A DNA stretch of 64,000 bases from the NCBI GenBank assembly GCA_036785375.1, contig JAWMAR010000020.1, forward strand, positions 5,146,001-5,210,000. The letters are read 5' to 3'. Positions within the stretch are counted from its first letter, which is position 1, and each line of letters starts with the position of its first letter. Below, piece by piece: positions 160 through 56,995 of this stretch. Origin of the DNA: Leucoraja ocellata (taxonomy: Eukaryota). The translations under genes were made by a program, and so were the position numbers. The notes under the pieces were generated by a model. The model saw only the letters and a list, made by a program, of their open reading frames with translations, searched no databases and was not told where the DNA came from.

Positions 160-2537
160 CAGCAATACATAGAAGTACCTACTAGAGAAGGGGCGGTGCT
201 GGACCTCCGGTTAGGAAATGAGACGGGTCAGGTGGCAGAGGTATGCGTTGGGGAACAGTTCGGGACCAGTGATCACAATACCATTAATTTCAATATAATT
301 ATGGAGAGGGGCAGAACTGGACCTATGGTTGAGATTTTTGATTAGAGAAAGGCTAACTTTGAGGAGATGCGAAAGGATTTAAAAGGAGTAAATTGGGACA
401 TTTTGTTTTATGGAAAAGATGTGGAAGAGAAATGGAGTACATTTAAAGGTGAAATTTTAAGAGTACAGAATCTTTATGTCCCTGTTCGGTTGAAAGGAAA
501 TAATAAAAATGGGAAAGAGCCATGGTTTTCAAGGGAAATAGGACACTTGGTTCAGAAAAAAAGGGAGAGCTACAATAATTATAGGCAGCATGGAGTAAAT
601 GAGGTGCATGAGGAGTATAAAGAATGTAAAAAGAATCTCAAGAAAGAAATTAGAAAAGCTAGAAGAAGATATGAGGTTGCTTTGGCAAGTAAGGTGAAAG
701 TAAATCCAAAGGGTTTCTACAGCTATATTAATAGCAAAAGGATAACGAGGGATAAAATTGGTCCATTAGAGAGTCAGAGAGGACAGCTATCTGCAGAGCC
801 AAAAGAGATGGGGGAGATATTGAACAATTTCTTTTCTTCGGTATTCACCAAGGAGAAGGATATTGAATTATGTGAGGTAAGGGAAACAAGTAGAGTAGCT
901 ATGGAAACTATGAGATTCAAAGAAGAGGAAGTACTGACACTTTTGAGAAATATAAAAGTGGATAAGTCTCCAGGTCCGGTCAGGATATTCCCTAGGACAT
1001 TGAGGGAAGTTAGTGTAGAAATAGCAGGGGCTATGACAGAAATATTTCAAATGTCATTAGAAATGGGAATAGTGCCGGAGGATCGGCGTACTGCGCATGT
1101 TGTTCCATTGTTTAAAAATGGGTCCAAGAGTAAACCTAGCAATTATAGACCTGTTAGTTTGACGTCAGTGGTGGACAAATTAATGGAAAGGATACTTAGA
1201 GATAATATATATAAGCATCTGGATAAACAGGGTTTCATTAGGAACAGTCAACATGGATTTGTGCCTGGAAGGTCATGTATGACTAATCTTCTTGAATTTT
1301 TTGAAGAGGTTACTCGGGAAATTGATGAGGGTAAAGCAGTGGATGTTGTATATATGGACTTCAGTAAGGCCTTTGACAAGGTTCCTCACGGAAGGTTGGT
1401 TAAGAAGGTTCAATGGTTGGGTATTAATGGTGGAGTAGCAAGATGGATTCAACAGTGGCTGAATGGGAGATGCCAGAGAGTAATGGTGGATGGTTGTTTG
1501 TCAGGTTGGAGGCCAGTGAGAAGTGGGGTGCCTCAGGGATCTGTGTTGGGTCCACTGTTGTTTGTCATGTACATCAATGATCTGGATGATGGTGTGGTAA
1601 ATTGGATTAGTAAGTATGCAGATGATACTAAGCTAGGAGGGGTTGTGGATAATGAAGTAGATTTTCAAAGTCTACAGAGAGATGTATGCCAGCTGGAAGA
1701 GTGGACTGAAAGATGGCAGATGGAGTTTAATGCTGATAAGTGTGAGGTGCTACATCTTGGCAGGACAAATCAAAATAGGACGTACATGGTAAATGGTAGG
1801 GAATTGAAGAATGCAGGTGAACAGAGGGATCTGGGAATAACTGTGCACAGTTCCCTGAAAGTGGAATCTCATGTAGATAGGGTGGTAAAGAAAGCTTTTG
1901 GTGTGCTGGCCTTTAAAAATCAGAGCATTGAGTATAGAAGTTGGGATGTAATGTTAAAATTGTACAAGGCATTGGTGAGGCCAATTCTGGAGTATGGGGT
2001 ACAATTTTGGTCGCCTAATTATAGGAAGGATGTCAACAAAATAGAGAGAGTACAGAGGAGATTTACTAGAATGTTGCCTGGGTTTCAGCAACTAAGTTAC
2101 AGAGAAAGGTTTAACAAGTTAGGGCTTTATTCTTTGGAGCGCAGAATTTAAGGGGGGACTTGATACAGGTCTTTAAAATGATGAGAGGGATAGACAGAGT
2201 TGACGTGGATAAGCTTTTCCCACTGAGAGGAGGGAAGATGCAAACAAGGGGACATGACTTGAGAATTAAGGGACAGAAGTTTAGGGGTAACATGAAGGTG
2301 AACTTCTTTACTCAGAGAGTGGTGGCTGTGTGGAATGAGCTTCCAGTGAAGGTGGTGGAGGCAGGTTCGTTTTTATCATTTAAAACTAAATTGGATAGTT
2401 ATATGGACGAGAAAGGAATGGAGGGTTATGGTCTGAGCGCAGGTATATGGGACTAGGGGAGAATACGTGTTCGGCACGGACTAGAAGGGTTGAGATGGCC
2501 TGTTTCTGTGCTGTAATTGTTATATGGTTATATGGTT
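160..2537 (+). mobile_element. CR1-clade LINE, 5'-truncated (end of endonuclease, RT, 3'UTR, (TATATGGT)n tail)
   Basis: ORFs 133-345 (SDH endonuclease motif), 367-2151 (KSPGP, NYRPVSLTS, DFSKAFDKVPH, GVPQGSVLGP, YADD) and 2160-2456 (RGH, FFTQRVV..WNELP). Stop near 345 and frameshift near 2150. Ends in GTAATTGTTATATGGTTATATGGTT. 5' boundary approximate. Confidence 0.95.
367..2456 (+). pseudogene. CR1 ORF2 reverse transcriptase, frameshifted near 2150
   Basis: RT motifs through YADD. The C-terminus continues in another frame, whereas the sister copy at 45362-46999 is uninterrupted here (ERRRLRGDLIEVFK). Confidence 0.9.
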
Positions 2538-13199: not shown

Positions 13200-14110
13200 C
13201 TTACAGGTGGGGGGAAGGTTGAAATACTTCTTAAAAGAATGGTGTTGGGTTACTAAGGATCCATTCATACTGCACAGTATAGAAGGATTCAAAATTTAGT
13301 TCAATTTAAATTTATCACCACCACCAACACATTCTAATACTCGCACATATGTCTTTTCCCAAAAAGAGACAATGGATATACAAAAAGAAATTGAAACGCT
13401 ATCTGACAATAATGTCATTGAGAGGTCATACACGGAACCTCACCAATTTATATCCAATATTTTTCCAAAAGAGAAAAAAGATGGAGAGATCCGTATTATT
13501 TTGGATCTTACAGAACTAAATACATATGTGCAATACAAACACTTTAAAATGGACAATTTTGGAACAGCAACTCAGTTGGTTTCCAAAAATGGCTATATGG
13601 CATGCATCAACCTAAAAGATGCATACTATTCGGTGTCTATTCACAAAGAGTATAGGAGATATTTGAAGTTTACCTGGATGGGTCAATGATGGCAATACAA
13701 GGCTCTGCCAAATGGGTTGACATCAGCCCCTAGACTGTTTACCAAATTACTTAAACCAATTCTGGGGCTGCTAAGATCTCAAAATCACATAGTCATGGCA
13801 TATTTTGATGACATCTTTGGAGTTACCAAAGAATTGGCGGAAGCAATAGTCAAGGCAACCAAAACCCTGTTTGAAAAACTTGGGTTCCTAATCCATCCAG
13901 TAAAATCAAAATTAACTCCTACCAAGGTAATTGATTATCTAGGATTTACTATCAACACAGTAACCATGTTGGTGACCTTGCCAAAAGGCAAACAAAAAGA
14001 CTTGCGGAAAGCCTGCAATGATCTGATAGAAAAAAACACAAACCAACTATCAGACAAACAGCAAGTGCTATTGGCAAATTGGTAGCTGCCTTTCCTGCAG
14101 TATGCTATGG
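13200..14110 (+). pseudogene. DIRS reverse transcriptase (disrupted)
   Basis: FISNIFPKEKKDGEIRIILDL, LKDAYYSV, LPNGLTSAPRLFTK, YFDD, YLGF. Stop at 13687-13689 and frameshifts. Confidence 0.9.
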
Positions 14111-15079
14111 ACCTTTGCATTACCAGTATTTACAGCGGGCATTGAACGAGCATTGAAATTGCATGCAGGTCAGTTTGGCAAATCAATGCGGTTACCAGCT
14201 GAAGCCATTATTGAACTACAATGGTGGATGACAAACATAAGACTCAGCTCAAGGGAAATCTTAATTAAGAGCCCTTCAGTGTTTCTCCAAACCGACGCAA
14301 GCGGGTTAGGATGGGGAGCCACTAACACAGCCAGGAGCTGTGGAGGCAGATGGAATGAGCAAGAGTCAACTGTACTGCAACAATATGGAATCAATTACCT
14401 AGAATTGTTGGGGGCACAATATGGACTCAAGTCTCTCTGTAACAACATGCAACATGTGCATGTTCAAATTCAGATTGATAACACTACTGCGGTAGCATAT
14501 ATCAATCACATGGGTGGTGTAAAATCTGTATCCTGTGACAAATTATCTAACCTCATTTGGCACTGGTGCATCGAGAGGGATATTTGGGTCATGGCAGTAT
14601 ATCTACCAGGAAGATATAACACGGTGGCAGATGCAAGGTCACGAATGTTTAATGACAACATAGAATGGATGTTGAATTGTACGGTATTTAATGAAATAAC
14701 TATACAATTTGGCACTCCAGATTTGGATCTGTTTGCATCTAGATTAAACCATCAATTACCCAGATATGTGTCCTGGGAGCCAGACCCAGGAGCAGAGTCA
14801 GTGGATGCCTTTTCCCTAAACTGGGGAGGAATGTATATTTATGTATTCCCTCCATTCTGCCTCATAAACCGATGCTTGACTAAAATCAAGCAAGACAAAG
14901 CCACAGGCATTTTAGTAGTACCAGATTGGCCTACACAAGCCTGGTTACCAAAAATACTGGGGATCATAGTCCAGCCATTAATGGTTGTACCTAAGAGGAG
15001 AGATCTCCTAGTAAACCCAGTTTCAGGGAGCAGCCATCCACTTTCTGACCGGATTGATTTGTTGGTTTGCAGATTCTGA
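14102..15079 (+). pseudogene. DIRS RNase H plus Dam-like N6-adenine methyltransferase domain
   Basis: RNase H motifs TDASGLGWG, INYLEL, IDNTTAVAYIN, NTVADARSR, then DLFAS...DAFSLNW...YVFPPF...VPDWPTQAW, the MT domain of DIRS1-like elements. Confidence 0.88.
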
Positions 15080-16046
15080 GGAGGCCATTTCAAGACATTG
15101 GATTATCCGAACGAACTGTGGATGTCATCACAAAGGCTTGGAGGGACATTACCAAAAAACAGTACGCCACTCGTATTAAGAAGTGGGACGCTTTCTGCCA
15201 TGCAAACGATATAGCATACAACACAGTTTGGATAACGGATATCTTGGAGTTCCTATCAACCCTGTACTATGACTATAAATTAAGTTATAGCGCAATCAAC
15301 AGTGCCAGATGTGCACTATCCTCCTATTTGACACTGGAGGCAGGGCACGGGCCGATAGGAACGCACCCCTTGTAATAAAATTCATGAAGGGAATTTACAA
15401 TTCGATACCCCCAAGGCCTAGATACACGAACACATGGGATGTGAGCATGGTACTGACCTTACTTCGTCAGTGGGGACAGCCAACGGCCTTATCTTTGTCT
15501 AAACTAACATTGAAAGTGGTAATGCTGATGGCGCTAATAACAGCCCAAAGAGTCCAGACACTACAAAAACTACGACTGGACTACATGACCAGCAACACGA
15601 ATAATATAACATTCGTTGTCAAGGACCTGATCAAACAGAGCAGGCCAGGAATGCCAGGGATGAAGATCCAGTTCCTGGCATATCCAGAGGACCTACGATT
15701 GTGTGTGGTAACACATTTACACCACTACCTGAGAGTCACGGAAAACCTCAGAGGCTCAGAACAATCGGTCCTCATCAGCCACAAGAAACCACACCAAAAG
15801 GTGTCGACACAAACTATCTCCAGATGGTTAAAGGAGGTAATGGTGGTAGCGGGAATAAATACTCATATCTTTAAATCTCACTCCACCAGGGCTGCATCTA
15901 CGTCGGCAGCAAGAACGATGGACATGCCCCTTGATGACATCCTAGCAGCTGCAGGATGGGTGAACGAAACGTTCCAGCGGTTTTATAATAAACCCATAAT
16001 CGGACCAGGGGTATTTGCTCGTGCCATCTTAAGTTCTGTTACCTAG
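15067..16046 (+). pseudogene. DIRS tyrosine recombinase (one frameshift near 15370)
   Basis: Catalytic R (AQRV), HSTR, GW and terminal Y (FYNKPI). N-terminal domain is ORF 15067-15375. Confidence 0.9.
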
Positions 16047-34650: not shown

Positions 34651-35189
34651 CTTTTGTTTCTAGAGAGGGGGGAAGCCACATATGATGGCTGGGAGAGGAG
34701 AACTAAGGAGGAAAGCCTGCCATGGAGATCACGAGAAGAAGGCAGGCCATGGGACCAGGGAGGAGGAAAGCACCAAGGGGAGGGAGGTTGTTAACCAGTT
34801 GTGGGGAAGTCAGCAGGAGCTTTAGGAGAGGAGACTTGGCCCAGGGTTAGCATGGGAGAGGAGGAAGTGTGGAGTCTGATATCATAGTTGGGGGAGTGAG
34901 GGTGGGAATGTGGATCATTCCCAGGGTAAGGAAGAGCATTTGGAGATAGCAGATTTGCTGAAGAGAGTAAGAGAGCACTGGGAAGCTGCAAATTGGAAGA
35001 ATGGGAGGTGGGGCCAGAGTAAGGGGGAAGGTCTGGGAGCTGTATATGATGTGAGGTGGGAATGCGGTGATGATTTAAATACACTAGTTGTCTGACTGAA
35101 GGTCTCTCATTCCAGCATTTTGGAATAATGGGAGAGACCCGATGATAGACAACATGGTCCGAGATCCAATATAACGTTCCAGAAAGAAT

Positions 35190-35315
35190 GCAGGAAGGAA
35201 CTGCAGATGCTAGTTTACACTGAAGATAGACACAAAATGGTGAAGTTGCTCAGCAGGTCAGGCAGCATCTCTGGAGAAAAAGAATAGGTAACATTTCAGG
35301 TCGAGACCCTTCTTC
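35190..35315 (-). repeat. Penelope-like tail repeat with degenerate hammerhead
   Basis: Reverse complement GAAGAAGGGTCTCGACCTGAAATGTTACCTATT...GATGCTGCCTGACCTGCTGAG. Confidence 0.7.
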
Positions 35316-35894
35316 CTGCCAGAGTGCCATGTGAGGAATGGCGCCACCTGGGGGCACAAATTAAGTTAAGATGAGTGAATTGCGAAAGATTTACTCCTGG
35401 TTAAAACAGCTCTGCGCAGCTCTGAAAAAACACTACTACATTATGTAATTGAATTTCTGGGCCTTTCTGTTTAAAATGGGGCCACGTTACACTTCATTAA
35501 TTTCACCTAAGTGGAACAGAGATACATTTTGAAGTTGTCGTATCATTATACTTGTTTCAAAATTCGTCTGCTGATTATGTTAGCAAACACTTTGATCCAT
35601 GTGAAATAAAATGAGCTGCGTCTCTATCAAAGAAATGGAAAGTGAAGCTGGATAAATGCTTGAGGAAGAAAGGGTTATAAAGCTATATTAATTGTTGGAA
35701 GTATGTTTGAATGGAGCACTAAAAATGGCATAGACTGCTGGTTTAATAGCTTGTGTCTGCACTGAGCCCAGCATTTCTAACATGCCTTCAGTGGCCTCAG
35801 CTTCCAGCCAATGAACAGCTTGAAAAAGTGTTCATGTTATCATACAGATAATTTACATGCAACAAAGTGGTCCTACCTGGATTCCTTGTTTGAC

Positions 35895-36258
35895 GGCGAC
35901 ATTGATAAAGGGATTGCTGCATTGGTGCTACCTCCTGCACCCACACACAACTCACTGACTTCATCCATTTCACCACTAACTTCCATCCGGCACTCAAATA
36001 CATACACCTGGACCATTTCCGACATTTCCCTACCATTTCTAAGCCTCACTATCTCCAGTTCAGGTGATAGACTACTGACCGACATCTACTATGAATCCAC
36101 TGACTCCCATGGCTATCTGGACTACACTTCTTCCCACCCTGCTTCCTGTAAGGACTCCATCCCCTACTTCCAATTCCTCCGTCTACGCCGCATCTGCACC
36201 CAGGGTGAGGTGTTCCACACCATGGAATCGGAGATGTCCTCATTCTTCAGGGAACGGA
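35895..36258 (+). mobile_element. Internal RT fragment of the Penelope-like family
   Basis: Closely similar to 39262-39609 (YTWTISD.SLPFL.LTIS..GDRLLTDI.Y..TDSHGYLDYTSSHPASCKDSIPY). Confidence 0.88.
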
Positions 36259-37500
36259 GGAGAAAAGTATTTACACGTTAAGCTTTTAAACTGTGTGCCG
36301 GAAATTGCTACATTGTTCTCAAACAGGCATACCACAGGCTCTCCTGTCCATAAGGCTCACAGTATGAAAACATCGATAAAGAGTGAACAGCAAATCTATA
36401 CTTACAGATATACAACATTATTCTCCCTGTTCTCAAGGTGAAAGGTGTCCTTGCGTAATCCTTTCACTTTTTCAACAATAAGTTATATAACATCACTATG
36501 CATATTTTCTGAACAACAACTAATGTTCATAAGGCACCAATAATTTGTTCTGGTTTTCAGTCTTTTTCTTTTCACGGTCTTGTATAGTTTATGTGTAATT
36601 TAGGTATAATTCATATTTTTGTGCATTTGTCCCAGTCTATGTGCTTGTGATGCTGTCGCAAGCAATGTTATTTATTGCACCCGCAGCTTACCATACTTAA
36701 CCTGATGATTTGACAATTATAGATCTAGTCTGTTGACTGGTGTTTGGAGTCTTCCTGATCTTCTTGCAGGGTTAGGTGTTCAATTAGCTCTTCCATTCTG
36801 GATTTGATTCCAAGATCTGTTTCGTTGACAGACTTGCTTGGATTTCATACTTTCACTTCTCGAAGTCTGTGCTGTCACCTTAGGCGTGAATTCATAACTG
36901 TGTGGTTCAACATCAAGATTTGCTTTTATGTCTGTGTTTGATCTACATGCACAATTCACATTTTGTCACCAATTTCAACCAAATATCTCTTGGTTCCACA
37001 AAGCTGTGCTACTATTAGTATTGACCATATCTGTGAGGTTGGATTAATAGGAAGGTCAGGAACGCTCATATGCTCATTTTACTTTTTTTTTAAAAGCAAT
37101 CTTAGTGATTGGCATCACGGTGACATTTTTGATCCAATTGCTTCTGTTCAATCTTAGAAACCAAATTTGGTTTGACAAAGACTTGCATGTGTATGAAATC
37201 TTCCCTTCATCAAGCGTTCTGCTAGAGTGTGCCCTGTGGTCGTGTGCAAAGTTGGTCTGAACTTCAATAAGAAATTGGTCAAATGATGTTTCATGTTGAG
37301 CTTTGAGTTTCCCAGTCACACAGACTGGCCTCTCAGCCACACTATTTGAAGTTGGATGATAGAAAGGAGGATTTGTCCAATATCTCGCTGCTTCCTAAAG
37401 TGAGTGAACAGGGGAGATCAAATGTAAAGCAGAAACAAGCTGTTCAGATAACCCACAACATGAATATACAGATCTCAACTCATCATTAGTACATTCGGTT

Positions 37501-40326
37501 GTGGTACATAAGCCCATGTATTTCCCTTCAGTCCCCTTGGAAAGACTATCAATCAACATCAGGAGCTTTCCGGGGCTTTCCCAGCATGGCCGCTGCATCG
37601 CAACCCGCTCATCTCGTCGCCTTCCCGGGCTGGCCGAGCCTTGCCGCCCCGCCGACCATCTGCCCACCGGGACCTCCCACACATCGCCCGCGGACCCCGA
37701 CTCAACCGCCCATCTACGCCGAACATCGGGTCCGCTGACCCGCGCCACTGGACTCTCACCATCGGGTCCGCTGACCCGCGCCACTCCACCTCCCTCCAAC
37801 AACCCACAGCCGTCGCCTTACCTGGAGCCTGGACTCTCCACTGGGCCTGAAGCCCTCACGCTGCTTACTCCCACTCTCCTGGGTTTGACTCCACTGGGTC
37901 CTAGTGCCAGTCGACCCAGCCTGGTCTACCTCAGTGGCAGTTCGACTGAGTCTCCTCCCCCCACCCCCTCTAACTGTAAGTCTCCTCCCCCCACCCCCTC
38001 TAACTGTGTGGCCCCTGCTCTTCCCCACCCACACCACAGCCCTCTCACCCCCCCACCCCCTGACCACCCACCACCCCCCCACCACACATCGCCTCGTCCC
38101 CACCTGCCTTCCTCCGGCCCCAACCCCCATCCCTGTCGAGTGTTCACCATCCCCCCCGACCTCCCCCTCTCCAACACCGAATGGTCCGTCCTCAACAGAG
38201 GTCTTACCTTTGTCCCCCTCCGTCCCCACCTCAATGAATTCCGCGCCCACCACGACTTGGAGCGCTTCTACCGTCGCCTCCGCCTCACAGCTTTCTTCCA
38301 TGGGAAGGAGTCCTCGCCCCCCACTGATGACCCCTTTTCCCGTCTCCAACGCACCCCCTCCTCGTGGAACCCCCCTCGTGGCCAATTTCCGGCTTTAGAA
38401 CTTTTTATCAATAACTGCCGTCGCGACATCAACCGCCTCAACTTCTCCACTCCCCTGTCTCACTCCAATCTCTCACCACATGAACGTTCTGCCATCGACT
38501 CACTCCGCAACAACCCAGATTTGGTTATCAAACCCGCTGACAAGGGAGGTGCCGTGGTAGTCTGGCGCGCCGATCTCTACAAAGCTGAGGCCACGCGCCA
38601 ACTATCGGACACCTCCTCCTACTTACCCCTGGACCATGACCCCACTGACGAGCACCAGGCCACCATCTCCAGCACCATCACCAACTTCATCCACTCCAAT
38701 GCCCTACCCGACCGAGCCTCCAACCTCATCGTTCCCCAGCCCCGCACAGCCCGATTTTACCTTCTCCCTAAAATCCACAAACCTGATTGTCCCGGAAGAC
38801 CCATTGTCTCCGCCTGTTCGTGCCCCACCGAACTCATTTCCAAATACCTTGACTCCATCCTATCACCCTTGGTTAAATCCCTCCCTACCTATGTTCAAGA
38901 CACCTCAGACACTCTCCGTCGTCTCCGCGCATTCAATTCTCTAGGCCCTCACCCCCTCATCTTCACCATGGACGTCCAATCACTATACACCTCCATCCCC
39001 CACCACGATGGTCTCACAGCCCTCCGGTTCTTCCTCGACCAGAGAAGCAACCCATACCCAGCCACTGACACTCTCCTCCGCCTAGCGGAGCTGGTCCTTA
39101 CCCTCAATAACTTCACGTTCGACTCCTCCCACTTCCTCCAAATACAAGGCGTAGCTATGGGCACACGCATGGGCCCCAGCTATGCCTGCCTATTTGTAGG
39201 TTACGTCGAGCAATCCTTGTTCAATACATACCAGGGCCCCATCCCCGACCTCTACCTCCGCTACATCGACGACTGCTTTGGTGCCACCTCCTGCACCCGC
39301 ACACAACTGACTGACTTCATCGACTTCACCACTAACTTCCATCTGGCACTCAAATACACCTGGACCATTTCCGACACTTCCCTACCATTCCTTGACCTCA
39401 CTATCTCCATTGCAGGTGATAGACTTCTAACCGACATACACTATAAACCCACTGACTCCCATGGCTATCTGGACTACACTTCTTCCCACCCTGCTTCCTG
39501 TAAGGACTCCATCCCCTACTCCCAATTCCTCCGTCTACGCCGCATCTGCTCCACGGATGAGGCGTTCCACACGAGGACATCTGAAATGTCCTCACTATTC
39601 AGGGAACGGGTGTTCCCCTCCTCCACCATAAATGAGGCTCGCACCAGGGTCTCTTCCATACCCCACAACACTGCTCTCTCTCCCCATCCCCGCACTCGCA
39701 ACAAGGGCCGAGTCCCCCTAGTCCTCACCTTTCACCCCACCAGCCGTCACATACAAAAAGTAATCCTCCGTCAGTTTCGCCACCTCCAACGTGACCCCAC
39801 TACTCGCCACATCTTCCCATCTCCCCCCATATCTGCCTTCCGCAAAGACCACTCCCTCCATAACTCCCTTGTCAATTCTTCCCTTCCCTCTCGGTCCACC
39901 CCCTCCCCGGGCACTTTCCCTTGCAACCGCAAGAGATGCAACACTTGTCCCTTTACCTCCCCCCTCGACTCCGTTCAAGGACCCAAGCAATCGTTCCAGG
40001 TGCGACAGAGGTTTACCTGCATCTCTTCCAACCTCATCTATTGCGTCCGCTGCTCTAGATGTCAGCAGATCTATATCGGTGAGACCAAGCGGAGGTTGGG
40101 CGATCGTTTCGCCGAACACCTCCGCTCGGTCCGCAATAACCAAGCTGACCTCCCGGTGGCTCAGCACTTCAACTCCCCCTCCCACTCCGCCTCCGACCTC
40201 TCTGTCCTGGGTCTCCTCCATGGCCACAGCGAGCAGCACCGGAAATTGGAGGAACAGCACCTCATATTCCGTTTGGGGAGTCTGCACCCCGGGGGCATGA
40301 ACATCGAATTCTCCCAATTTTGTTAG
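37501..40326 (+). CDS. Penelope-like RT / GIY-YIG endonuclease polyprotein (uninterrupted; first ~22 codons are flanking DNA)
   Basis: IKPADKGG, FYLLPKIHK, GRPIVS, MDVQSLYT, GVAMG, RYIDD, LPFLD; linker CNRKRCNTC; NLIYCVRC..C..IYIGET..L..RF.EH endonuclease ending in GMN. Confidence 0.9.
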   Translation: MVHKPMYFPSVPLERLSINIRSFPGLSQHGRCIATRSSRRLPGLAEPCRPADHLPTGTSHTSPADPDSTAHLRRTSGPLTRATGLSPSGPLTRATPPPSNNPQPSPYLEPGLSTGPEALTLLTPTLLGLTPLGPSASRPSLVYLSGSSTESPPPTPSNCKSPPPTPSNCVAPALPHPHHSPLTPPPPDHPPPPHHTSPRPHLPSSGPNPHPCRVFTIPPDLPLSNTEWSVLNRGLTFVPLRPHLNEFRAHHDLERFYRRLRLTAFFHGKESSPPTDDPFSRLQRTPSSWNPPRGQFPALELFINNCRRDINRLNFSTPLSHSNLSPHERSAIDSLRNNPDLVIKPADKGGAVVVWRADLYKAEATRQLSDTSSYLPLDHDPTDEHQATISSTITNFIHSNALPDRASNLIVPQPRTARFYLLPKIHKPDCPGRPIVSACSCPTELISKYLDSILSPLVKSLPTYVQDTSDTLRRLRAFNSLGPHPLIFTMDVQSLYTSIPHHDGLTALRFFLDQRSNPYPATDTLLRLAELVLTLNNFTFDSSHFLQIQGVAMGTRMGPSYACLFVGYVEQSLFNTYQGPIPDLYLRYIDDCFGATSCTRTQLTDFIDFTTNFHLALKYTWTISDTSLPFLDLTISIAGDRLLTDIHYKPTDSHGYLDYTSSHPASCKDSIPYSQFLRLRRICSTDEAFHTRTSEMSSLFRERVFPSSTINEARTRVSSIPHNTALSPHPRTRNKGRVPLVLTFHPTSRHIQKVILRQFRHLQRDPTTRHIFPSPPISAFRKDHSLHNSLVNSSLPSRSTPSPGTFPCNRKRCNTCPFTSPLDSVQGPKQSFQVRQRFTCISSNLIYCVRCSRCQQIYIGETKRRLGDRFAEHLRSVRNNQADLPVAQHFNSPSHSASDLSVLGLLHGHSEQHRKLEEQHLIFRLGSLHPGGMNIEFSQFC
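37723..37785 (+). repeat. Two copies of CATCGGGTCCGCTGACCCGCGCCACT in the PLE 5' region
   Basis: Direct repeat (SGPLTRAT x2). A second 30-bp tandem duplication lies at about 37949-38008 (SPPPTPSNC x2). Confidence 0.85.
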
Positions 40327-40439
40327 TCCTTGCTGTCTCCTCCCCTTCCTCAGCCCCCCTGCTGTCTCCTCCCATCCCCCAGCCTTCTGGCTACTCCTCC
40401 TTTTCCCTTTCTTGTCCCCACCCACCCCCGCCCCCGATC

Positions 40440-40473
40440 AGTCTGAAGAAGGGTTTCGGCCCGAAACGTTGCC
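40440..40473 (+). ncRNA. Minimal type-I hammerhead ribozyme motif in the PLE 3' terminus
   Basis: CUGAAGA (40443-49), extra A, stem II GGGU-UUCG-GCCC, GAAAC then GUU, palindromic AACGUU stem III. Stem I is only about 2 bp by eye. Confidence 0.7.
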
Positions 40474-41142
40474 TATTTCCTTCGCTCCATAGATGCTGCT
40501 GCACCCGCTGAGTTTCTCCAGCTTTTTTGTGTAACATCAGGAGACTGTTCCCTCCTTTTTCATGAATGTCCTTTCTGAAAATGTCCAAGCAGATGATAAC
40601 CATGGGTGTAAAGGAATTTTTACTTACATGCGGCAAAAACGTGGTCAAATATTTAATCTGCTTATTGTTCAAACAATACCAGCAAACAAAACTTCTTGGA
40701 ATTGTTTTCACAGTGATTGTTGTTGTATGTTCAATACAAAGTTTGGGTAAAATCTCTTATCTCAAAATAATAGGTTTAACCACTCCATAACTTCACTTGA
40801 TGCAGCCTTGCTAATGTGACAACTTGTTACGACAAATGTGGAATAGGTTTGGTTCCTCATCTGTACATTGACTCAATTCTGTCCATCCTTCTCAGTGTCT
40901 GCTCTTCAGCACTGAGTTTTGTGGCATCTGTGATTTCAGATGCAGTCACTGGGAAATCCACATCAGTTGTGGTACAGAGCAGAGCAGCATCCTTGCAGCT
41001 CCCACACCTTGGGCTCAGTCCTGACCTGCATTACTATCCGTGTGCTGTTTTCACGTTTTACCTGTTACTGCATAGTTATCTTCTCATGCTCTGGTTTCTG
41101 CCAGGTCCTAAACACAAGAATGCTGATAGGTTAATTGGGTGT

Positions 41143-41880
41143 ATTGGATTGGATTGGATTCAATTTATTGTCATTGCACTTTTCAGTGCAACAAAATGGT
41201 TTAGCCTGCAGTCATAACATAGAATAAATAACAAACACTCAACACAGTTTAAAGTCCCAAAGTCATTGTCTCTTCCCTCCTTGCTCTCCCTCTGCGCTGA
41301 GGCAATCTAAGCCTCCGATGTTACGACCCCACCGGGTGATGGTAAGTCAGTCCCGCGGCTGAATCCGTGCTCCGCAAACGGACCGGTTCAAACTCCGCGG
41401 CCCGGGGTGGTCGAAGCTGCCGAAGCTGCCGCCCTCCAGTCCAGCGGACGCAGCTGTAGTTGCAGGAGCTCCGGAAAAACAGGTGACCACCTGTGAGCTC
41501 CCGACGATGTCGTCCACTGGCCCGAGGCCCAGCCTCCGAGGCTCCAAAGTCGGGTCGGAAGTTGGGTCGCACCGCAACCACAGCCCCGAAGTCGACTAGC
41601 CTCGCGATGGTAAATCCTGGCTCTGCCTCCGCAGCCTCGAGGTCGGTCGCAGTTGGAGGCCGCCAGCTCCGCGATAGGCCTCAGCGCAGACAGACACGGA
41701 GACTGGGGATACGGCAGGAAAGGTCGCATCCCCCTCCGAAGGAAGAGTCAAAAAACATACCACACCCACCCCCCACACATACACAACTAAATAAACCGAA
41801 ATAAACTGCAACAACGGGACAAAAGAAAACAAAAAATAGAAAAGACAACGGACTGCAGGCGAGCCGCTGCTGCAAGGCAA
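41143..41880 (-). mobile_element. GC-rich non-coding retroposon with (ATCCA)n tail, inserted in an older SINE
   Basis: Minus strand starts TTGCCTTGCAGCAGCGGCTCGCCTGCAGTCCGT and ends ATGACAATAAATTGAATCCAATCCAATCCAAT. No credible ORF. Confidence 0.7.
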
Positions 41881-42409
41881 CTTGTATGAGGGCAGAGTTG
41901 AAAGGGATGTGAGAGATGGAGAATAGATTACTTGGGAATTAAGGACTCTGGGAGCAAGACTGATGGGACTGCTTTAAGAGCTGGCATAAATTTGATCGGC
42001 AAAATGGTTGTCTATCTTTGTGAATATGAAAATAATGTAGTTACCTTGTAGACCACACTTTCACTTCCAACTTCAGAACATTCATGAGTCATTCTGAGTC
42101 ATTTGTAACTGTCACTGTATGTCATGTTGTTACTTGTGGGCGGAGCGCCAAGGCAAATTCCTTGTATGTGAATACTTGGCCAATAAACTTACTTACTTAC
42201 TTCATATGGTAACATATGGTAAAAGACCGTTCAAGAGAGTCTCGTCTGAGAAATCTTGGAGGTCAGGGAAATCACTGAGAGGGAGAAGAACGAGAAAATT
42301 GGAGGAATTTAGCTTATGGGGCATTTTGGTCTTTGAAATGCAGCAGCAAGCAAAGACAAGTTTTTGGCTTCAACAGTATTTTCACTAGTTAACCAGGTGA
42401 CATTAAAGG

Positions 42410-42650
42410 TTCCTTCTGTTTCACATCTTCTGCTTTAATCTCTGGCCTTTCTTACAACCATCTGCCTATTAAAACCTCCCTCACCTGTGTCCACTTATTC
42501 CCTGCCACTTCTTGTCCTGCCTCTCCTCTCTCTCAGTTTACTAACCCCCCTCCTTAATCTGAAGAAGGGTCCCAACCCGTAACGTCACCTGTCCATGTTC
42601 TCCGCAGATGCTGCATGACCTGCTAAGTTACTCCAGCACTTTGTGCCCTA
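42410..42650 (+). repeat. Non-autonomous Penelope-like tail with hammerhead motif
   Basis: CTGAAGAAGGGTCCCAACCCGTAACGTCACC at 42559, preceded by pyrimidine-rich sequence like the PLE 3'UTR. Confidence 0.7.
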
Positions 42651-43883
42651 CCTTAAAGTAACAATTCCCTTATAGGCAATTATTTTCCTGGACATTTTCA
42701 GAATCAGTTCCAACAGAGTGCTGCTCTGCTGTGCCTCTCTGACTGTGAAATGCAGCTAAACCAGTCTTCAGCGGTGGACAAAACTCTCTGGATGGAATTC
42801 CCACTGTCACTGCTTTCACACGCAAGTTCGAAAGTTCACCTTTGCATTCTCAACAGCCTTTACAGAATTCTGCAGGTACATGCACAAACTTTTAATAAGG
42901 CATAATCTAAAAAGGCAGCATATTGCTGTGTAAGGATATGTTCTTCAATGATCGAATCTGCCCTTGAACTGCGCCACCTATCTTGCAGATCCTTGTTCCA
43001 ATCATGTAGCTTTCTGGTGCTTTGACAGATTTGGATTAAAGTAATCTTCCAGTTTCTGCACAATATCTTTAAACAAGCCCCTTTTCACCTTGCCAGAGTG
43101 CCATTTCCTTCTGGCCAGTCTCCATTGGGAACATTGTTTCTTTCACATTCGCACATCACATCTGTTGGGGTGCTCGTGATATTACTTTACCCCTCAAAGC
43201 GCGTGCATATGTGTATATATATATATAAATTCAATATTTGTTTATTTTTTTAATTTCTTCTTTTTTCCCAATTGTTTCCAGCTGCCACTGATGATTAGTT
43301 TATGTTGCCTCTTGTTCCCGCTGCCCAGCGCTTCATTGTGACACGGCTGCATCAGATCTCTGGATCTTGATGAGAAACAGTGACTAGACTGGCCAACCCT
43401 GGTCATAAAGGCAAGATAGAATCCACCTTCACCTTTTCCGTTCATACACTTTCTAGCTGGTAGCTTTAATGATGACTTAGACACTTATCATTGAACAAAG
43501 TCATTATACCAAAAAATAAACTCAAAGCTGAAGAGAAATTAAATGTGTTTTAATATAAATTTGCAGAATGATGATTGCTGAAGGTGGCAAATACACATAA
43601 CTGATGAAGAATCTTGGACTATGAACTGCTTTCTTTCCACAGATGTCGCTTGTTTTGATTTTTTAAAATGCCAGTTTGTCTAAGCTTTCGGTTACCTGCC
43701 TTAATCTCTCTTTAACTGATGTCATATCCTGTCTGATTGCATCCTCTGGTATTTTGCTATGTTAAATACATTGTTTAAATGCAAGATGTTTTTGATCAAA
43801 CAAATTATATGGAGCCTTGTTTGGACAATCGGGAATGGCTTCATATTAATTTCCTGTCAGTGGGTTTAAACCAATTTGCCTGG

Positions 43884-43987
43884 ACTTACAGTGGTGTGTT
43901 GTCTTGACCTGTCAGGCCGGAGATTCCAGCCAGGCTCTCTGGAACAAGCCTGGAAACTACGTGATAGTCGTTGAGCTTTTATAAAAG
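43884..43987 (-). promoter_or_regulatory. Candidate TATA promoter plus short first exon and splice donor
   Basis: Minus-strand TATAAAAG (43976-43983), GTAAGT donor (43884-43889), non-repetitive context next to a GA tract. Motif-only evidence. Confidence 0.3.
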
Positions 43988-44014
43988 CACATTCACTCCC
44001 TGGTATCCCCCACA

Positions 44015-44200
44015 GAGAGCAAGGGAGAGAGAGAGAGAGCGAGAGAGGGGAGAGAAAAATAAAAGGAGAGAGTGTGTGAGTGAGAGAAAAATAAAAGGAG
44101 AGAGTGTGTGAGGGAGAGAGAGAGAGAGGAAGCGAAGGAGAGAGAGAGAGTGAGAGAGAGAGAGTGAGAGAGCAAGAGAGAGATGTGGAGAGAAAGAGAG
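44015..44200. repeat. (GA)n polypurine low-complexity tract
   Basis: Direct reading; includes a duplicated GAGAGAAAAATAAAAGGAGAGAGTGTGTGAG unit. Confidence 0.95.
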
Positions 44201-44589
44201 ATTGGAAACTGCAGCTAGGGAATGAATAGGAGGAATGAAGAATTGGAAAAGACAGGCTGAACAAAAACAAATTTTCTGCAAAAGGTTTCCCTGGAGATTG
44301 CCACTTAGATTGCACCATATTTGCACCACAAAATGAAATTTCTTCAAAACCCTCACGCCACAGTCTGTTTAAAATTGAATCATTCAATCCATCCTTAAGG
44401 GTCTGGACAACTTAAAATAAATTAAAATTTCAGATGAAATGCCAGCGTGAATTTTGTAAACCCTCCCTCTCATGTCCTTACAATTGAACCATGGGCTGGA
44501 CACTGAGGAGGGGTGCAGGGAACGGTGAAGGAGGGCGGATTGACGTTTGGATTCGGTTTTTCAGGGATTGAATGATCGCTTCAGTTTCA

Positions 44590-45100
44590 GCTGTGGGTTA
44601 ATGCAGTTTGGGAGGTGAACAAACGAGGAAAAATACAATGAAGTGGCGGAATATTGGGAGGTGCGGATGAACAGTGTGGAATGTATGTCCACAGCCCTTG
44701 AAAGGTAGCAGGCCAAGATAAAAGGTGTTTTTCAAAAGCATTTAGGAAGCTTTTATTTACTATGCAAGATATAAAAAATAAGATCAAGAGGGTTATGATA
44801 GGAATACATGCTTGCTAGGTTTTAGAATATTGTGTGGATTTCGCATCACCGCCTTACAGGGAAAAGCGATTGCTTTAGTCAAAAGAGATTCATGAGGATT
44901 TTGCCAAAACTGGAAAATTGTAGATATAACTATAAAACGGGGTGATTTTCTTTGGAAGAATATGAGCTGAGGAGAAACATAGTTGAGAAGAATAACATTA
45001 TGAGCAAACTAGATAGAATAAAGTGGAAGAACCCATTTCCCTAAGCAGAAGGTCAAAAGCCAGGTTTATAATTGGTAGAATTAGAGTGTGTCACTGTTTA
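44590..45100 (+). mobile_element. Highly degraded CR1 RT C-terminal fragment
   Basis: Vestiges of VHSPLKV..Q..KV..KA...L, LEYCV and RFMRILP. Confidence 0.55.
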
Positions 45101-45273: not shown

Positions 45274-46998
45274 CATATATAACCATATAACCATATAACA
45301 ATTACAGCACGGAAACAGGCCATCTCGACCCTTCTAGTCCGTGCCGAACACATAATCTCCCCTAGTCCCATATACCTGCGCTCAGACCATAACCCTCCAT
45401 TCCCTTCCCATCCATATAACTATCCAATTTATTTTTAAATGATAAAAACGAACCTGCCTCCACCACCTTCACTGGAAGCTCATTCCACACAGCTACCACT
45501 CTCTGAGTAAAGAAGTTCCCCCTCATGTTACCCCTAAACTTCAGTCCCTTAATTCTCAAGTCATGTCCCCTTGTTTGAATCTTCCCTACTCTCAGTGGGA
45601 AAAGCTTTTCCACGTCAACTCTGTCTATCCCTCTCATCATTTTAAAAACCTCTATCAAGTCCCCCCTTAACCTTCTTCGCTCCAAAGAATAAAGCCCTAA
45701 CTTGTTCAACCTTTCTCTGTAACTTAGTTGCTGAAACCCAGGCAACATTCTAGTAAATCTCCTCTGTACTCTCACTATTTTGTTGACATCCTTCCTATAA
45801 TTAGGCGACCAAAATTGTACACCATACTCCAGAATTGGCCTCACCAATGCCTTGTACAATTTTAACATTACATCCCAACTTCTATACTCAATGCTCTGAT
45901 TTATAAAGGCCAGCACACCAAAAGCTTTCTTTACCACCCTATCTACATGAGATTCCACTTTCAGGGAACTGTGCACAGTTATTCCCAGATCCCTCTGTTC
46001 ACCTACATTCTTCAATTCCCTACCATTTACCATGTACGTCCTATTTTGATTTGTCCTGCCAAGATATAGCACCTCACACTTATTAGCATTAAACTCCATC
46101 TGCCATCTTTCAGCCCACTCTTCCAACTGGCATAAATCTCTCTGTAGACTTTGAAACTCTACTTCATTACCCGCAACCCCACCTATCTTAGTATCATCTG
46201 CATACTTACTAATCCAATTTACCACACCATCATCCAGATCATTGATGTACATGACAAACAACAGTGGACCCAACACAGATCCCTGTGGCACCCCACTCGT
46301 CACTGGCCTCCAACCTGACAAACAACCATCCACCATTACACTCTGGCATCTCCCATTCAGCCACTGTTGAATCCATCTTGCTACTCCACCATTAATACCC
46401 AACCATTGAACCTTCTTAACCAACCTTCCATGAGGAATCTTGTCAAAGGCCTTACTGAAGTCCATATACACAACATCCACTGCTTTACCCTCATCAATTT
46501 CCCGAGTAACATCTTCAAAAAATTCAAGAAGATTAGTTAAACATGACCTTCCAGGCACAAATCCATGTTGACTGTTCCTAATCAGACCCTGTTTATCCAG
46601 ATGCTTATATATATTATCTCTAAGTATTCTTTCCATTAATTTGCCCACCACTGACGTCAAACTAACAGGTCTATAATTGCTAGGTTTACTCTTAGACCCC
46701 TTTTTAAACAATGGAACAACATGCGCAGTACGCCAATCCTCCGGCACTATTCCCGTTTCTAATGACATTTGAAATATTTCTGCCATAGCCCCTGCTATTT
46801 CTACACTAACTTCCCTCAATGTCCTAGGGAATATCCTGTCCGGACCTGGAGACTTATCCACTTTTATATTTCTCAAAAGTGTCAGTACTTCCTCTTCTTT
46901 GAATCTCATAGTTTCCATAGCTACTCTACTTGTTTCCCTTACCTCACATAATTCAATATCCTTCTCCTTGGTGAATACCGAAGAAAAGAAACTGTTCA
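45274..46998 (-). mobile_element. Young 5'-truncated CR1 LINE with uninterrupted RT reading frame
   Basis: ORF 45362-46999 (545 aa) nearly identical to the copy at 821-2456. (ACCATATA)n tail. ATAAC at both junctions (45269-45273, 46999-47003). It interrupts an older minus-strand LINE tail. Confidence 0.95.
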
Positions 46999-46999
46999 A
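45362..46999 (-). CDS. CR1 ORF2 RT domain (partial; lacks endonuclease and true start)
   Basis: All RT motifs including YADD, no stops. Confidence 0.85.
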   Translation of the reverse strand: MNSFFSSVFTKEKDIELCEVRETSRVAMETMRFKEEEVLTLLRNIKVDKSPGPDRIFPRTLREVSVEIAGAMAEIFQMSLETGIVPEDWRTAHVVPLFKKGSKSKPSNYRPVSLTSVVGKLMERILRDNIYKHLDKQGLIRNSQHGFVPGRSCLTNLLEFFEDVTREIDEGKAVDVVYMDFSKAFDKIPHGRLVKKVQWLGINGGVARWIQQWLNGRCQSVMVDGCLSGWRPVTSGVPQGSVLGPLLFVMYINDLDDGVVNWISKYADDTKIGGVAGNEVEFQSLQRDLCQLEEWAERWQMEFNANKCEVLYLGRTNQNRTYMVNGRELKNVGEQRDLGITVHSSLKVESHVDRVVKKAFGVLAFINQSIEYRSWDVMLKLYKALVRPILEYGVQFWSPNYRKDVNKIVRVQRRFTRMLPGFQQLSYRERLNKLGLYSLERRRLRGDLIEVFKMMRGIDRVDVEKLFPLRVGKIQTRGHDLRIKGLKFRGNMRGNFFTQRVVAVWNELPVKVVEAGSFLSFKNKLDSYMDGKGMEGYGLSAGIWD

Positions 47000-47176
47000 T
47001 AACGTCTGATTAAAGATAGTTCACAGTAGATGGGAAGTCAGGACCACACTGTTGCTGGTGAGAGAACGGTTCAGTTGCCTGATAACAGCTGAGAAGAAAC
47101 TGTCCCTGAAATTTGATGAGTGTAACACTAATAGAGGCTTCTAATAAGTGTGTAACTATAATAAGTGGGATTGCCT

Positions 47177-54909: not shown

Positions 54910-56995
54910 TTTTATTTTATTTTTTTATTTATTAGAAGTACAGTAAATTACAATAATACACATCAGATATATCTTATTACATTTGTTGTACCACTTCGTT
55001 TTTCGAGCTTTAAAAAAGATAGAAATAAAAGAAGGAAGGAAAGTGAGCAAGAATCGTGAAGGTGCAGGAAAGTGTTGGGAAAAGAAAGCCCCTTAAGGAA
55101 GAAGTTAGGGAAGGAAGTAAAGAAAGGAAATAAGACCCTAGAAAGAAAAGAAAAAAAAGGAAAAATAATCGCTCTATTGTAATACAAAACTCACAAAAAA
55201 GGATATACCAACCATGTTTTTTTTTTTAAATTTATTTTATACCCCCCGTTACCAGATCCTGGTACCATTTATATTTTAAATTACTATTGCACCTTATGCT
55301 TGTAATAGTTCCATAAATGCAGACCACGTCTTTTGGAAGTGGTCTGCTTTGCCTGCTAGGAGGAGTCTCATCTCTTCCAAGTGTAGTGTTTCGAACATGT
55401 TTGAAATCCACATTTTTATTGGTGGTATTGGAGCATTTTTCCAAAATTTGAGTATAAGCTGTTTTCCCATTATTAGCCCGTAATTAAGTAAGTTCTTTTG
55501 AAACACGTTTAATTCAGGGTTACCTTCCGATATTCCAAAAATGATCCATTCTGCTTTTGGTACAAGTTTTATTTTAAATAATTTTGTGAAGATTTCAAAT
55601 ATTTCGTTCCAGAATTTTTGGATTTTTATACAAAAAACAAAAGAGTGCGCTATGGTAGCTTCTTGTGACTGACATTTATCACAAATGGGTGAAACATTGG
55701 GGAAAAGTTTATTTATTTTAGTTTTTGAATAATATAGTCCATGTAATGTTTTAGATTGAATTAGAGTATGTCGTACGTTGATCGAGCATTTATGCACATA
55801 TCGTAAGTGTTTATCCCAGCTCTCTTTTGAAATTTTTATAACTAGTTCTTGTTCCTAGTCTCTTCTAATACCATCGGTTGTAGGTATTTCTATATTTAAA
55901 ATAATGTTGTATGAGTATGATATTAGATTTGCTGATTCAGCCTTTGTCTTCATGGCTTCATCCAATAAGTCTGGGGGCATGTTATGATAGTCTTTTGGGT
56001 ATTTTTTCAGATAGTCACGGATTTGAAGATATTTAAAATATTGACTATTTTTCAAATTATATTTCAGTTGTAATTGTTGAAATGATAATAATTTTCCTAA
56101 CTCATACAAGTCTCCGAGCATTTTGATTCCCATTCTTTCCCATTGTGTAAATGATGTATCTATAATTGAAGGTTTAAACGATGGGTTATTGACTATTGGC
56201 ATTAAAAGAGATAGATTTCTTAATTTTAGATTCTGTTTTATTTGTTTCCAAGTTCTAATTGTGCTATGTATCATTGGACTTTTATTATAATTTTTGTTAT
56301 TCAGATTCATTGGCGAGAGGAGAGTCGCTCCTGTATTACACGGAGAGCAGTCCTCTCTCTCCATTACAATCCAGTCCACCTGCTGGGCAGAGTTGTCCAG
56401 CAGGTGAATCATATTTTTAATATTTACTGCCCAATTATAGTACATAAAGTTAGGGAGCGCTAGACCACCCATCTCTTTTGGTTTACTAAGATGTGCTCTT
56501 TGTATTCTGTGGGATTTATAATCCCATATAAAATTTGTAATGTCTGAGTCTAGTTTTTTGAAAAACTTTTTTGAAAGATATATTGGAATTGATTGAAATA
56601 AATATAGGATTTGTGGTAAAAAGATCATTTTTATAGCATTTATTCAACCTATTAAAGACATCGGGAGCGTTTTCCAGAATTTGATTAGATTATTTAGTTT
56701 CTTAAGTAAGGGACTATAATTGGCGTTAAACAGCGTGATAGTTTCTAGTGATTTAAATTCCTAAATATTTAAATTTTTCTGTGGCTATTTTAAAGGGGAA
56801 TTTCAAGAGATGTGTTGAGTCTTTCGGTTTTATCGACATCATTTCACATTTGTTCCAGTTTATTCTGTATCCTGAGAAAGATCCAAAGTCCTCAATTAGA
56901 TTTAATATGTTTGGTATACTGATTTGGGGTTTTGTGATATACAGTAATACATCGTCTGCATATAAGGATATTTTGTTATTTGAATATTTTGTATT
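54910..56995 (-). mobile_element. 5'-truncated L1/Tx1-clade LINE (RT C-terminus, CCHC domain, 3'UTR, poly(A))
   Basis: Minus-strand YADD (~56950-56961), FKYLG, LPQILYLFQ, GGLALPN, CDKC..ATIAHSFVFC. Exact 15-bp TSD ATCCTTTCTGCTTTT at 54895-54909 and 56996-57010. Stop codon near 55855. Confidence 0.93.

Follow-up and report, generated by a model that had tools for sequence, protein, structure and literature searches.

The window analysed here, the whole stretch of 64,000 nucleotides from Leucoraja ocellata, contains on its forward strand a Penelope-like element (PLE) that was inserted with a target-site duplication (TSD), has lost part of its 5′ region and carries a hammerhead ribozyme motif near its 3′ end (Table 1). 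The reading frame is open across the reverse transcriptase (RT) and GIY-YIG endonuclease domains, however about 1 kb of the 5′ end is missing, including the start codon and the upstream hammerhead, and no in-frame ATG precedes the RT core, so that the earlier note overstated the case in calling the element ORF-intact. Other copies reach about 1 kb further upstream than 37570, through an ATG, which follows an upstream hammerhead at a distance of 164 nt, and a 37-nt tail. Owing to the truncation, the window copy has one hammerhead in its sole terminal repeat (pLTR), no start codon and no upstream repeat, and this sets it apart from a transposition-competent full-length element, which would have both an upstream pLTR and a start codon.

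Table 1. Features of the Penelope-like insertion and its surroundings (positions in the window).
Feature	Position	Strand	Remarks
Left TSD	37555..37565	+	8-11 bp; first 3 nt also match the element 3′ end
Filler	37566-37569		
5′-truncated Penelope-like element	37570..40535	+	~99% identical to other copies
Open frame without start codon	37570..40326	+	longer copies start ~1 kb further upstream
Reverse transcriptase core, YIDD intact	38773..39288	+	RVT_1, E 2.1e-6, 28.1 bits, just below cut-off of 29.6
CX4CxxC linker, Neptune/Nematis type	39922..39948	+	motif; PMC8557442
GIY-YIG endonuclease with CCHH residues	40030..40302	+	PF01541, E 7.9e-4, 20.1 bits, just below cut-off of 22.6
Pyrimidine-rich 3′ UTR	40327..40435	+	
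Start position of many short family copies	40437..40446	+	peak 40441; Inr-like or splice-acceptor-like sequence
Minimal type I hammerhead	40441..40472	+	predicted cut 40470/40471
Predicted hairpin at the 3′ end, where family copies mainly terminate	40500..40535	+	optional 37-nt tail absent here; PMC11167929
Right TSD	40533..40543	+	
Nearest same-strand relative, older subfamily	42559..42586	+	GAAA box broken, ACGU intact

Both domain scores lie just below the curated Pfam cut-offs, and the motifs add support to them. A single ORF with RT and, at its C terminus, a GIY-YIG domain bearing CCHH residues, together with partial tandems, inverted 5′ copies, a 30-40 bp tail and a TSD, is the organization of endonuclease-positive (EN+) PLEs. 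The same RT, CX2-5CxxC linker and C-terminal GIY-YIG with CCHH, as well as 5′ truncation, partial tandems, inverted 5′ copies and a tail of 30-40 bp, are described for EN+ PLEs of the Neptune clade (PMC8557442), and judging from its sequence the element is likely of Neptune type, with a linker that is also common to Nematis.

The hammerhead core CUGAAGA occupies 40443-40449 (C3 at 40443, A9 at 40449), 116 nt behind the TAG stop at 40324-40326, which the earlier note had estimated at about 115 nt. It is directly followed by an extra A at 40450, a stem II of 4 bp (GGGU/GCCC, 40451-40462) with a UUCG loop, the GAAA box (40463-40466) and an ACGU palindrome (40466-40469) forming a stem III that has no loop, in which C15.2-G16.2 lie at 40467-40468 and U16.1 at 40469, while H17 is the U at 40470. 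Stem I consists of one U-G and one G-C pair (40441-40442 with 40471-40472), then two mismatches, and positions 2.3/1.3 and 2.4/1.4 are mostly unpaired across 156 family copies as well. The letters, the loop, the extra A and the stem I of about 2 bp are thus as the earlier note had given them, and so is the predicted cut after 40470. Its palindromic, loop-less stem III also stands, except that the AACGUU named there is too long, since the outer A14-U17 pair is not part of stem III and the stem proper is ACGU.

A CUGANGA core with GAAA, U16.1 and an H17 (here U), a stem II with G10.1-C11.1 and an additional nucleotide after A9, and a palindromic 15.2-16.2 lacking loop 3 are the hallmarks of the minimal hammerheads (min-HHRs) of PLEs. 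The motif is hence a real copy of this minimal ribozyme, as the earlier note had recognized. A descriptor search, which had been proposed there as a check, matched once in the window under strict settings, where 100 Markov simulations would predict 0.06 matches. An Rfam scan of 35000-45000 gave no hammerhead family at E ≤ 10 and a PDB sequence search gave 0 matches at E ≤ 0.1.

Hammerheads of PLEs are already known (PMC4209133), and the motif is ordinary in kind. The min-HHRs described there from metazoan pLTRs, including the fish elements Xena, Poseidon and Neptune, share the same core, the extra nucleotide between 9 and 10.1, G10.1-C11.1, the loop-less palindromic 15.2-16.2, the position in the terminal repeat and the occurrence of many lone copies from truncated elements. 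The window motif differs in having U at H17 and a stem I of 2 bp, as in D. virilis, in contrast to the 4-5 bp of other min-HHRs (PMC4209133). In Poseidon of Anolis carolinensis (PAc), too, the hammerhead sits close to where pLTR and ORF meet, a tail lies between the two 3′ ends, which are its two priming sites and are matched here by copy ends at 40533-40537 and around 40572, and there are no reads at the cut site (PMC11167929). Differences from PAc are that the ATG lies 164 nt after C3 in this family and inside stem II in PAc (PMC11167929), and that a Cys linker is present in the window element. Non-LTR retrozymes also contain a type I hammerhead related to that of PLE pLTRs (PMC7229834; bioRxiv 10.64898/2026.07.22.740005), but the window motif resides in a coding element, is not part of an array of short tandem units, and has the minimal, not the canonical, form. 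Identity with a retrozyme was rejected, as short non-coding tandem units with a hammerhead in each are not what is found here. Among the publications listed by our literature search (related work: PMC6765202, PMC7229834, PMC6155905), none dealt with this family or with the peak of copy starts described below; such variants may be covered by the supplements of PMC4209133 or by Lunse et al. 2017.

The family is very young and abundant. It is judged young since all 40 scored matches to the last 341 nt (of 636 candidates) are 99-100% identical and the exact 28-mer of the window copy, the U17 form, is found 28,189 times in the genome. The C17 sister form of this 28-mer has 7,762 exact copies and an older form 21,383, with 0 matches for each control, and the core pattern has 192,874 matches genome-wide against 254 for its reversed control. 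About 4,000 and 9,000 motifs are given for coelacanth and Xenopus (PMC4209133), which were counted with other descriptors and are not strictly comparable. A profile search detected 143 related matches across 310 kb of DNA that had not been selected, and the window itself holds 15. The intact core, which the earlier note had implied to be special, is therefore shared with tens of thousands of identical copies, and the single motif matters little. A very young vertebrate family in which C17 and U17 forms exist as sister subfamilies, and whose copy ends are sharply mapped, makes a convenient test system, for which the truncated locus in the window is not the best copy to assay.

In a comparison whose sample was enriched for pattern-selected loci, older subfamilies have U-A at 10.4-11.4 and 2.1-1.1 together with C17, and the young subfamily has U-G at both and mostly U17. 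The changes at paired positions preserve pairing (U-A to U-G twice), H17 changed from C to U, and none falls in the hammerhead core, which is kept in all subfamilies and suggests selection for cutting in the source elements. U17 and the two U-G wobbles are thus the state of a subfamily, and decay of the window copy was ruled out as the origin of U17 by the subfamily-wide recurrence of its 28-mer. Inserted copies, on the other hand, decay without visible selection. The full descriptor survives in 28 of 156 copies that were taken without a pattern (out of 353 extracted), and stem II has no pair that covaries above shuffles, in a set of decayed copies that gives little power. The stem changes are one-sided subfamily changes only, and a covariation signal at 15.2-16.2 is likely a CpG effect. 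Of the two things that the earlier note had proposed to look for in stem II, conservation was found, as subfamily sequence, and covariation above shuffles was not.

For the monomer, the active fold is predicted at -2.6 kcal/mol and the minimum free energy fold at -8.0 kcal/mol, and stem II has a probability of about 0.01 in the predicted ensemble because GGGU pairs with sequence past the cut site. Nearest-neighbour models always rate hammerhead folds too low, and in older subfamily C, too, the predicted fold disfavours stem II (P 0.14). An extra-stable UUCG loop was considered and dismissed, as it is closed by U-G and the hairpin reaches -3.7 kcal/mol, compared with -3.4 in the older subfamily and -6.3 for a C(UUCG)G control. 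In the predicted dimer, the duplex grows from 4 bp (-3.1) with C17 to 6 bp (-5.7) with U17, because U17 pairs with A14, and this added pair would likely weaken cutting further. GUU is a permitted triplet, GUC and GUA being the fastest (PMC3138052). In published systems, a min-HHR of Schistosoma was uncleaved as a monomer and weakly cleaved as a dimer (PMC4209133), the anole PLE hammerhead required protein to cleave, and insertion in vitro did not depend on that hammerhead (PMC11167929), and eight of nine Xenopus retrozyme dimers were uncleaved (bioRxiv 10.64898/2026.07.22.740005).

Activity at the locus is doubtful, because stem I has 2 bp, the predicted fold competes and no intact partner lies nearby, and also because no covariation was detected in the 156 copies and less than about 0.5% of copies start at the cut site. 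The earlier note was right to point to a partner copy, which would be needed. It is conceivable that a host transcript reading through the window copy is cut there, with another transcript or the older relative at 42559 serving as dimer partner, and that host RNA is affected in this way. The core is intact, the same-strand relative 2.1 kb downstream of the hammerhead has retained its ACGU, and RNA reads from the same species or a relative contain the family in abundance, but the GAAA box of that partner is broken, stem I has 2 bp and a competing fold is predicted, so that we consider this highly improbable.

Tandem copies show what the source elements may look like. Two of them (L061 and L126) have a hammerhead in both pLTRs at a spacing of 3952 and 3985 nt, respectively; source-like copies thus carry two hammerheads about 3.95-3.99 kb apart, and the ATG follows the upstream one at 164 nt. 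Several other arrangements were noted. At L126-L127 (G000:C1:8664505-8672502) three hammerheads follow each other at 3985 nt in full head-to-tail units. Short tandem arrays of the pLTR and the ORF start occur at G000:C205:4350756-4351696 (372-nt units), C9:3394689-3395483 (299) and C13:10639151-10639959 (204), of which those of C205 and C9 retain whole hammerheads and have a retrozyme-like look. Tandem 66-nt repeats derived from the element 3′ end, without the CUGA half of the hammerhead, are found in L072 (5859-8054), and at least six copies at multiples of about 35.3 kb in G000:C29 (47528-259740) suggest a large tandem duplication.

The 3′ ends of fetched copies fall at 40533-40537 or around 40572, and 40500-40535 is the likely start of reverse transcription for the family. 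Among the first 100 of 65,759 anchor matches (the anchor lies downstream of the motif; counts are by eye, with duplicates included), 33 copies extend past 40430, 46 start at 40437-40446, with 17 at 40441, where stem I begins, and 21 start at 40447-40483, with 3 at 40471; 79 therefore start at or before 40446. Genome-wide junction patterns gave 285 matches at 40471, 139 at 40466 and 380 at 40476, of which plain flank junctions made up about 29, 45 and 11 by eye in each first 100. Allowing for the pattern letters, this leaves roughly 240, 130 and 85 junctions, so that 40471 exceeds the two positions beside it by two-fold at best, with anchors that differ in length. Since the majority of copies extend across the cut site and hardly any begin at it, the copied RNA is likely to have been mostly uncut. 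The family is seen in transcripts in three RNA runs of the same species or a relative, mostly as short copies embedded in other RNA, and no start pile-up was seen at the cut site in these runs, whose libraries are insensitive to such ends.

A cycle built around cleavage has been proposed for min-HHRs (PMC4209133), in which dimers in tandem sources would cut, the unit-length RNA would be ligated to circles, and RT around the circle would yield partial tandems, making the window copy a dead product of a process with the ribozyme at its centre. The core conserved across subfamilies and the weak junction excess at 40471 fit such a cycle, and so do the copies with a tail-ORF junction. In the first 100 of 214 such copies, counted by eye, 57 continue beyond the hammerhead in the upstream direction and about 5 begin at its 5′ edge, a pattern that a circle or long read-through would produce. 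Read-through of existing tandems or template jumps would yield the same pattern, however, the RNA reads have no start pile-up in their insensitive libraries, and the hammerhead is unneeded for insertion in vitro (PMC11167929), which leaves this cycle rather unlikely.

The peak at the 5′ edge of the motif invites another explanation, namely that the motif is mainly structural and that its 5′ edge is the 5′ end of the copied RNA, either a transcription start or a nuclease-protected boundary, from which priming about 95 nt downstream would give a SINE-like mini-element. In addition to the 46 starts above, TSDs abut or overlap the 5′-edge starts of several short copies (123 junctions in 110 fetched loci, a non-random sample), jumps in contigs of run X15 land at 40433-40442, and the density of related matches in unselected DNA is in line with this. 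The sequence at this edge resembles both an initiator (compared with PMC3846280 and PMC2377424) and a splice acceptor, and in D. virilis a splice acceptor adjoins helix I (PMC4209133), but an intron from 40322 to an AG at 40440-40441 had no such joint among the joints listed for the three RNA runs, possibly from a related species. The peak belongs to short copies, because copies with the tail-ORF junction seldom start there, and early fall-off of RT at the C-rich tract would explain it equally well. We therefore hold the structural explanation only tentatively, as one that is probably not correct. The alternatives discussed here are not mutually exclusive at the family level. A bolder combination, more speculative still, is that the amplifying family tuned its hammerhead down through the inhibitory U17 dimer pair, that the uncut fold became the 5′ boundary of an RNA of about 95 nt copied tens of thousands of times, and that the ribozyme fold was kept for structure. 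If true, the C17/U17 sister pair with its unequal exact copy numbers would be a natural test of the role of PLE hammerheads, whose function is described as an open question (PMC8557442, PMC11167929).

We favour, with a probability of about 0.72, that the hammerhead at the locus is a passenger in a truncated insertion from a young PLE family, likely of Neptune type, and is likely not cutting, and that slow cutting by dimers with the help of protein could occur in the tandem sources of this family, whose copied RNA is nevertheless likely to be mostly uncut. Following published work, the two motifs of a tandem source would pair through ACGU, probably helped by the element protein, and would be cut slowly after H17; we infer further that the RNA used for copying would be mostly uncut and that U17 likely weakens cutting through the extra A14-U17 pair. 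Against the passenger reading stand the core conserved in all subfamilies and a GUU triplet that is permitted (PMC3138052), the undervaluation of hammerhead folds by folding models together with the like misfolding of older subfamily C, the rough two-fold junction excess at 40471, and the possibility that copies spanning the cut site could come from circles that were cut and re-ligated.

The window contains other repeats as well. Between 2864 and 62901 there are 14 further, mostly decayed relatives of the hammerhead-bearing end, and an older related PLE RT fragment at 36002-36257 is 89% identical to 39354-39609. Two LINE RT copies in opposite orientation, at 346-2151 (+) and 45362-47020 (-), are 96-97% identical and are presumably CR1/L2-like. 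RNase H-like and tyrosine-recombinase-like frames at 14030-16046 are, judging from their motifs, a likely DIRS-type element, and LINE C-terminal frames at 55294-56643 (-) are, on the same footing, assumed to be L1/Tx1-like. Elsewhere in the genome, the window insertion with its flanks recurs at 99.6% identity on another contig (L001/L032, G000:C678), as an allele or a segmental duplicate, and an intronless open frame that adjoins a PLE tandem (L057, 1-830) is presumably GPCR-like, judging from its motifs.
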